From a virus (Duplodnaviria; Heunggongvirae; Uroviricota; Caudoviricetes), in the IMG/VR virus record IMGVR_UViG_2645727991_000009: 7,574 nucleotides of DNA; one strand, written 5' to 3'. A model generated the notes under the pieces. It was not told where the DNA came from. It was given only the letters and a program-made list of their open reading frames with translations, and did no database searches. The translations under genes and the position numbers were made by a program. This document shows, piece after piece, positions 4,982 to 5,270 of the stretch; position 1 is the first letter of the stretch, and each line of letters opens with the position of its first letter.

Positions 4982-5073
4982 CCAGACCCGGGGGGGATCA
5001 TCCGGCGAAAAAAAACGATCGCCCTGGACACCGCGCCCCCTCTCACGCAGAGAAAAAATTCCCGTTTCAGGGC

Positions 5074-5199
5074 AGTTAACATGTTAACTGGCTGCCCGGG
5101 CATTTTTGCGGTTTTTATCTTTATTATTCAGTTTGTTGTGCGGAAAAAATGTTAACAGGCTTTTTCAGCAAATGTTAACCAGGCAGCAGTTAACATTTG
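5074..5199. repeat. Cluster of GTTAAC-core palindromic repeats upstream of terminase; candidate cos / small-terminase recognition sites
   Basis: A perfect 16-bp palindrome AGTTAACATGTTAACT lies at 5074-5089. AAAATGTTAACAGGC is at about 5145-5159. The inverted pair CAAATGTTAAC (5169-5179) and GTTAACATTTG (5189-5199) gives five copies of the ATGTTAAC core in about 125 bp, between the HNH gene and terS. Confidence 0.6.
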
Positions 5200-5270
5200 C
5201 GGCATGAGACGCCGGGAAAAATGGGCTGAACCATACCCGGCTGAGTGCGTTCTGGACCCGGGAGGAGGCT

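Follow-up and report, generated by a model that had tools for sequence, protein, structure and literature searches.

The array of short repeats between the HNH endonuclease gene and terS in the window (the whole stretch of 7,574 nucleotides that was analysed) is probably the part of the cos region recognized by the small terminase subunit (TerS) and would be the equivalent of cosB in phage lambda. The repeats and their clustering were read from the sequence, the position of the DNA ends was taken from homology together with a published PhageTerm analysis, and the link between the repeat motif and the helix-turn-helix of TerS comes from comparative analysis. The window belongs to a long-tailed lambdoid prophage of the genus Pankowvirus that is of the Stx1a/Stx2c-converting type. 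Its segment 4600-5900 has 93-98% identity to phages YYZ-2008, 2851, BP-4795 and WGPS6, and the intergenic region 4982-5270 has 100% identity to WGPS6. Its genes are, in order, those of a lysis cassette into which an antirepressor gene is inserted, then DUF3950, HNH, terS and terL; those that bear on the array are as follows.

4389-4574, minus strand: DUF3950 (YlcI-like, RHH-like) gene (PF13132, E 9e-20), about 500 bp upstream of the array
4616-4981, plus strand: HNH endonuclease gene, a packaging accessory nuclease of HK97-type cos systems (PF01844, E 5e-6)
5261-5268, plus strand: Shine-Dalgarno sequence GGAGGAGG of the present terS start, read from the sequence
5271-5834, plus strand: terS, small terminase subunit (PF03592, Terminase_2, E 1e-8)
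5831-7483, plus strand: terL, large terminase subunit with ATPase and nuclease (PF03354, PF20441)

The terS start is GTG at 5271, and the same start is annotated in related phage records. The antirepressor-type gene (2324-2893, plus strand), with P22_AR_N and ORF11CD3 domains, lies between the lysozyme gene and the Rz/Rz1 spanin genes. The interval of about 600 bp from the spanin region to the DUF3950 gene (3760-4390) has only short overlapping open reading frames and no gene supported by Pfam; it includes an exact match to the IHF consensus at 4053-4065 on the minus strand and a terminator-like hairpin at 4370-4384.

The cos region and its repeat array

Phage Lys8385Vzw, whose TerS is 94% identical to that of the window and whose intergenic region is the same, was assigned by PhageTerm as a cos phage with 3' cohesive ends and with the cos sequence CGCCCCCCCT at the end of its record (PMC7946995). 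The record starts with CTCACGCAGAGAAAAAATTCCC, which corresponds to window position 5042 onward, and ends with GACACCGCCCCCCCT. The first-pass annotation had proposed that this is a cos region, and the ends of Lys8385Vzw, at the equivalent of 5041/5042, bear this out. With 5042 taken as +1, they place the array at +33 to +154, between cosN and terS, so that it is next to the site at which the cohesive ends are nicked, on the terS side. The core around the cut has three parts.

4990-5031: left part of the cos core, a run of seven G residues (4990-4996) and CGATCGCCCTGGACAC, conserved across Enterobacterales genera
5032-5041: predicted cohesive end CGCGCCCCCT, a 10-nt 3' overhang equivalent to cosN, by homology to CGCCCCCCCT of Lys8385Vzw
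5042-5065: right part of the cos core, CTCACGCAGAGAAAAAATTCCCG with an A-tract, +1 to +24 of the packaged right-hand end

The 10-mer of the window differs by one base from the overhang of Lys8385Vzw, the relative in which the ends were mapped. The right part of the core is near-invariant in all relatives, whatever the class of their TerS, and also in islands that carry terS as their only terminase gene. All 22 Enterobacterales loci with a TerS 33-49% identical to that of the window (from Atlantibacter, Kluyvera, Enterobacter, Citrobacter, Erwinia, Pantoea, Serratia, Morganella and others) have a core made up of a G-run, then CGATCGCCCTGGACACCGCGCCCCCT followed by CTCACGCACAGAAAAAATTCCC. The left part is partly kept in Burkholderia phages too, one of which has a recognizable right-hand part after a shorter G-run. 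An HNH homologue lies directly 5' of the core in nearly all relatives, and the 3' end of the HNH gene, just 5' of the left part, is mosaic. A second virion-derived record with ends at the core was sought and none was found; the Burkholderia phage records have arbitrary start points just 5' of terS. Literature searches on cos or cosB in Stx phages yielded nothing beyond the PhageTerm assignment of Lys8385Vzw; the paper on phi330 does not report its termini, and no description of such an array in this group of phages was found in the literature searched.

A comparison of 105 unique related sequences shows a sharp mosaic boundary between 4851-5025 and 5030-5420: they vary strongly in the 3' third of the HNH gene and hardly at all in the cos core, the array and the first 150 nt of terS.

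The hexamer GTTAAC occurs nine times in the window as compared with 1.5 expected, a count reached by none of 200 shuffles, and five of the nine copies fall in 5075-5194. The longer half-site ATGTTAAC has five copies in the window, all of them within 5075-5196, where 0.20 would be expected. The repeats are thus present in several copies, in both orientations (-,+,+,+,-) and far above chance. Their arrangement is as follows.

5073-5090: proximal pair, an 18-bp perfect palindrome of CAGTTAACA followed directly by TGTTAACTG, from two ATGTTAAC half-sites, 5075-5082 (minus strand, +33) and 5081-5088 (plus strand, +39)
5091-5146: T-rich spacer from proximal to distal sites, which varies in sequence by lineage with similar T-richness and length
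5147-5156, plus strand: site 3, AAATGTTAAC, with its half-site at 5149-5156 (+107); it becomes ATGTTTAT in class B lineages
5168-5179 and 5189-5200: sites 4 and 5, an inverted repeat GCAAATGTTAAC-N9-GTTAACATTTGC with 12 of 12 positions complementary and a 9-nt gap; half-sites at 5172-5179 (plus strand, +130) and 5189-5196 (minus strand, +147)

The start of terS is at +229. The first-pass annotation had described five GTTAAC-core copies between the HNH gene and terS, and both the count and the placement are confirmed, the latter by the gene coordinates. It had also described a perfect 16-bp palindrome, which is indeed perfect but is 18 bp long, and a shared flank AAATGTTAAC-N-GGC, which holds roughly, sites 2, 3 and 4 reading acATGTTAACtGGC, aaATGTTAACaGGC and aaATGTTAACcaGGC. 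The second inverted repeat, at 5168-5179 and 5189-5200, had not been spelled out and is an addition.

The ATG at 5081 opens a reading frame of 24 codons (5081-5155, plus strand) for a hydrophobic peptide, MLTGCPGIFAVFIFIIQFVVRKKC, with its stop inside site 3. The frame has the same length in one diverged lineage (L088) and stops after 5 or 14 codons in two others (L325 and L085). A small protein from this ATG was rejected because of these truncations, which indicate that the sites are preserved rather than coding, and the frame is probably a by-product of the T-rich spacer.

The small terminase and the repeat motif

The proposed reader of the sites is the N-terminal domain of TerS, and the repeat motif falls into three classes that go with different forms of it.

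5271-5438: helix-turn-helix domain at the N terminus of TerS (residues 1-56)
Class A: ATGTTAAC; TerS residue 25 A or T, residue 32 T, residue 35 V or I; the window, P0017, P0009, P0038 and P0033
Class B: ATGTTTAT or ATGTTTAC, with the five sites placed and oriented as in class A; TerS E25/S32/C35; P0022, P0008 and P0020
Class C: AAAAGTTACAC repeats from +31/+32; TerS with KG[W/C]QL in helix 3

In the AlphaFold2 model of the N-domain there are four helices (residues 4-14, 19-25, 30-41 and 44-56; pLDDT 92-96), and a segment comprising the AAIAAGYS turn and the next helix weakly matches the DNA-binding domain of SF6 TerS (4zc3, 2cmp and 3zqp). Residues 32 and 35 thus fall within helix 30-41, the predicted recognition helix, and residue 25 closes helix 19-25, which comes before it.

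All five half-sites are ATGTTTA[C/T] in the three class B lineages, and two partial loci whose TerS also has E25/S32/C35 (P0013 and P0031) carry the class B motif at every site covered. Among the A and B lineages compared, the E25/S32/C35 helix was seen only with class B arrays. In two lineages the class was assigned from the helix before the array was looked up: P0020, with a class B helix, has an array of class B whose spacers differ again from those of the others, and P0033, which is class A except for V35I, has a class A array. The L088 lineage, whose TerS is only 64% identical overall, retains ATGTTAAC. The other components of the module do not divide in this way. TerL identity is 96% between the window and class B, as against only 84-88% between the window and other members of class A, and HNH identities are 73-80% with no class pattern. 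There is also no class pattern in TerS from residue 57 to the end, in which class B locus L331 is 85% identical to the window and class A locus L088 is 56% identical. In the sequences compared, motif class tracks TerS helix residues 25, 32 and 35 and nothing else in the module. The proposal of the first-pass annotation that the repeats are small-terminase sites is therefore supported by their covariation with the TerS helix-turn-helix residues across lineages, a covariation that rests on three classes, not on many independent switches. The array and the 5' end of terS are less than 250 bp apart and so are inherited together, and the difference between A and B may be a single evolutionary event. 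As an observation on the protein, the TerS N-domain and the remainder of TerS recombine independently.

Six diverged lineages (alignment A2) differ in their spacers and have the half-sites as conserved islands at +33-, +39+, +107+, +130+ and +147-, and the half-site 8-mer occurs nowhere else in their loci. Within class A, 5042-5420 is highly conserved as a whole, so at that depth the sites are not set apart from their surroundings. Three scans of viral contigs returned only loci with the helix-turn-helix class of the window and are informative on conservation of the sites, not on covariation. A scan of genome contigs with the single TerS protein gave no relative, and an alignment-based scan recovered relatives.

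Class C arrays were found in E. coli and in a Hafnia phage. Two E. coli loci (L335 and L336) have at least five AAAAGTTACAC copies over about 200 bp with an AT-rich spacer, and another two (L089 and L090) have two direct copies before terS and four more inside it; the corresponding numbers in the Hafnia phage (L337) are one and three. In the stretches fetched, the four E. coli loci have a cos core, repeats and TerS without HNH or terL; these TerS-only islands lie at L089:1428-1989, at L335:1790-2491 and in L090 and L336. Neighbouring genes are AlpA, AAA_25/D5_N primase-type genes and a capsid-like gene. From gene content alone, the islands look like satellites that would redirect the terminase of a helper with a TerS of their own.

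The palindrome and the inverted repeat might alternatively be hairpins. These might serve in intrinsic termination or attenuation downstream of the HNH gene, or might regulate terS expression as an RNA or DNA structure. The flanks of the first palindrome vary by lineage yet stay complementary (CAG/CTG, GCCAG/CTGGC, GGTG/CACC and GGGTA/TACCC) and are followed by T-rich DNA, the palindrome in L088 is a clean hairpin followed by UUUU, RNA of sites 4 and 5 folds with -15.5 kcal/mol (z = -3.3), and a concerted A-to-T and T-to-A change in both arms of these sites keeps the pairing. However, the fold of 5070-5097 is unremarkable (z = -1.4) with its U-run apart from the stem, a terminator scan gave none at 5060-5210, and the region lacks the G+C-rich stem-loop with an immediate U-run of an intrinsic terminator. 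The sole result of the promoter and terminator scan inside the array is a chance-level promoter-like match on the minus strand, and Rfam gives no match. The class B palindromes consist of A and T only and have no stable stem, so that the feature is absent there; site 3 is unpaired, yet switches along with the other sites; and the arrays of class C and of one distant relative (L021) are direct repeats that are unable to pair. We consider hairpins unlikely as the explanation of the array. The complementary variable flanks (5073-5090; L328, L325 and L088) are a minor unexplained point in favour of structure: half-sites alone do not explain them, and they could reflect a hairpin, a cruciform or palindrome-templated repair.

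It is very improbable that the repeats are operators of the DUF3950 protein, or sites of the HNH protein or TerL. The DUF3950 gene is divergently transcribed, about 500 bp upstream on the opposite strand, and palindromic sites would suit a dimeric RHH protein, which the first-pass annotation had offered as a fallback. This fallback is not supported, since the array or the ancestral palindrome persists where there is no DUF3950 within 1.5 kb, namely in class B loci L085 and L086 and in 22 of 22 distant relatives that keep the palindrome; the gene is also absent from the TerS-only islands. Class A loci whose DUF3950 proteins are 82-100% identical and class B loci without DUF3950 have the same layout of sites, and among 34 loci tblastn located DUF3950 only in L325-L329, to which the called genes of L339 and L340 are to be added, so that gene and array do not regularly co-occur. 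HNH and TerL identities do not track motif class, and the islands, which have neither gene, still carry arrays.

A host architectural protein such as IHF or Fis might bind the sites and bend cos, as IHF does at I1 of lambda. The T-rich spacer lies where lambda has its IHF site, an analogy of position only. No match to the IHF consensus WATCAANNNNTTR with one mismatch or fewer occurs in 4700-5300, and a protein of fixed specificity cannot account for the switches between classes A, B and C within one host species. This explanation is extremely improbable.

Recognition by TerS remains the preferred reading, and it suggests the following mechanism. TerL, aided by the HNH protein, would make staggered nicks in the core (about 4990-5065) to give the 10-nt 3' overhang at 5032-5041. 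The helix-turn-helix domains of an oligomeric TerS would bind the ATGTTAAC half-sites, that is, the pair at +33/+39 and the cluster at +107, +130 and +147, which are separated by the T-rich and probably bendable spacer. Such binding would hold the terminase at the end of the DNA that goes into the capsid first, and would position TerL on the core. We infer the binding, the wrapping or bending of the DNA, and the division of labour between core and array. The A-tract of the core, the equivalent of the TerS site of HK97, could be the true TerS site or an additional one.

How the Terminase_2 family reads DNA is still debated. The natural variants of motif and TerS provide a compact and testable recognition code for this widespread family, and a candidate entry is the change from A to T at half-site position 6, which is paired with T32S, V35C and A25E.

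Distant relatives, origin and spread of the sites

In most of the distant relatives terS starts only 39 nt after the cut, with GGAGGGTGTAAAC preceding ATG TTA ACn (Met-Leu-Thr). The window palindrome at 5073-5090 is therefore homologous to the ribosome-binding site and start codon of the ancestral terS. Three distant relatives have GTTAAC at +33, and L024 and L026 add a second GTTAAC at +41 (GTTAACGTGTTAAC). In two relatives terS starts with ATG CTG ACA, and repeats of the GTTAAC type occur at other places near cos: between the core and terS of L021 there are three direct copies of GT[TA]AACCC, and in L025 there are GTTAAY copies on the left side of the core and, inside terS, three copies of GGTTAACC spaced by 12 nt. 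These independent arrays count in favour of recognition by TerS. The rare codon TTA is present at terS codon 2 in 14 of 17 unique distant sequences, a conservation no stronger than that of some other codons, so that it was not used as evidence by itself.

A second cluster is found inside the distant terS genes. The sequence AAT GTT TAY ACC CCA GCG GTA AAC is present at about +246/+261 in 16 of 19 relatives with terS at +38/+39. Its inverted repeat ATGTTTAY-N9-GTAAAC has the same form as ATGTTAAC-N9-GTTAACAT of the window and shares the spacer end CAGCR, and it encodes NVYTPAVN, the only conserved island in a TerS linker that is otherwise hypervariable and, by prediction, disordered. What is conserved in this island may be the DNA and not the peptide. 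In L005-L020 the NVYTPAVN repeat spans about +244 to +266 from the cos end, to be compared with 5172-5196 in the window. The presence of this cluster inside distant terS genes suggests that the layout with two clusters is ancestral. In the lineage of the window both clusters are 5' of terS, the present start of which is 190 bp further on, and duplication and decay of the 5' part of terS is one possible route to this layout.

From the same comparison the repeats might be read as non-functional relics of a duplicated and decayed 5' part of terS whose persistence would be due only to the youth of the lineage. In the relatives, the Shine-Dalgarno sequence and start codon of terS align with the first palindrome, sites 4 and 5 resemble ATGTTTAY-N9-GTAAAC inside their terS, including the ...CAGCR spacer, and within class A the region is more than 95% identical throughout. 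We regard this reading as quite unlikely, because five lineages (L088, L325, L085, L331 and L341) keep all of the sites in position and orientation despite strongly diverged spacers, and because the same base is altered in all five copies, which would not be expected of relics. The short reading frame at ATG 5081 is also unconserved, as described above for L325 and L085.

A broader reading is put forward tentatively, at less than even confidence. A universal nicking core, cosN-like and shared from E. coli to Burkholderia phages, would be combined with swappable specificity modules, each composed of a helix-turn-helix and its repeat. The motifs ATGTTAAC (class A), ATGTTTAY (class B) and AAAGTTACAC (class C) may be modules matched to the TerS helix-turn-helix, and these modules may define packaging-specificity groups among co-resident EHEC prophages, in which there are up to seven copies. 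The islands that combine core, array and TerS may steal the TerL and HNH of a helper. The sites may ancestrally have been inside terS, at the start codon and in the NVYTPAVN island, the latter perhaps conserved as DNA, and later have moved out in the lineage of the window.

The array region was found in 1287 of 5426 complete E. coli genomes (about 24%), in up to seven places per genome and in roughly 3000 copies altogether, and among the records listed O157:H7 typically has 4-6 copies per genome. Several copies in one genome imply that several co-resident prophages share one packaging specificity. The module is carried by long-tailed Stx1/Stx2c-converting phages and related prophages, often several per genome. 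Knowledge of the cis packaging signal would help to predict joint packaging or transduction of prophages, satellites and plasmids, would help in mapping virion ends in sequencing data, and would aid the design of cos plasmids or packaging assays for Stx phages.

Comparison with known packaging systems

The TerS-only islands (L089/L090 and L335/L336) resemble satellites that redirect packaging by means of a TerS, as in SaPI, in that a TerS homologue lies beside the same cos core with repeats of its own. They differ in that SaPI TerS acts on pac sites, whereas the islands have a cos core. In the E. coli PICIs known so far, terminase of the lambda type is redirected by Rpp and not by a TerS of their own (PMC6739421).

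TerS of the window belongs, like SPP1/SF6 G1P, to PF03592 (Terminase_2), and both systems have multiple TerS contacts over 100-200 bp by the cut, partly in or near terS, those of the window being candidate contacts. SPP1 and SF6 package headfuls from pac with imprecise ends, whereas the window has defined cohesive ends, as judged from its relative, and an HNH partner. The terminally redundant and permuted ends of headful packaging are not found here; Lys8385Vzw is a cos phage with fixed ends.

By gene order and type of end the window is an HK97-like, HNH-dependent cos module. The order HNH (4616-4981), cos, terS, terL is that of HK97, as are the 10-nt 3' cohesive ends, predicted here from those reported for the close relative, and Kala et al. 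in 2014 reportedly described the role of HNH in HK97-type packaging. The HK97-like setting claimed in the first-pass annotation thus stands for the order of HNH, cos and terS but not for the family of TerS, which is Terminase_2 (SF6/SPP1-type). HK97 TerS is of another family, and the window TerS matches PF03592 only and has a modelled N-terminal helix-turn-helix, and so is not of the HK97 gp1 type. HK97 TerS reads a single 15-bp site, +15 to +29, as the DNA emerges from its central channel (PMC11331095, Chechik et al. 2024). An A-tract near that position is shared with the window, which has GAAAAAATT at +12 to +20; in contrast to the one site of HK97, the window has five candidate half-sites farther out, at +33 to +154.

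Lambda cosB has the order R3-I1-R2-R1, and its R sites are bound by the small terminase subunit gpNu1. Like the window array, it is built of short repeats, in both orientations, that are located after the site of nicking and before the gene for the small subunit. Either array covers about 30-160 bp from the cut and has a spacer, bendable in lambda and probably so in the window, that separates the first site from the distal ones, and the role proposed for the array, anchoring of terminase for cosN nicking and initiation of packaging, is that of cosB. There are also clear differences. Lambda has 12-nt 5' overhangs and no HNH partner, whereas 3' ends and an HNH gene are predicted and present, respectively, in the window. 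Lambda TerS is of the gpNu1 family, whereas that of the window matches only PF03592; lambda requires an IHF site in the spacer, and none is present in 4700-5300 of the window; and the R sites are 16-bp elements, whereas the window has 8-bp half-sites that form a perfect palindrome and an inverted repeat. The array is in its proposed function and its position closest to lambda cosB, and it lies outside the lambda family by TerS type, IHF and end polarity. As a probable TerS recognition array it would be a known kind of element, like lambda cosB.
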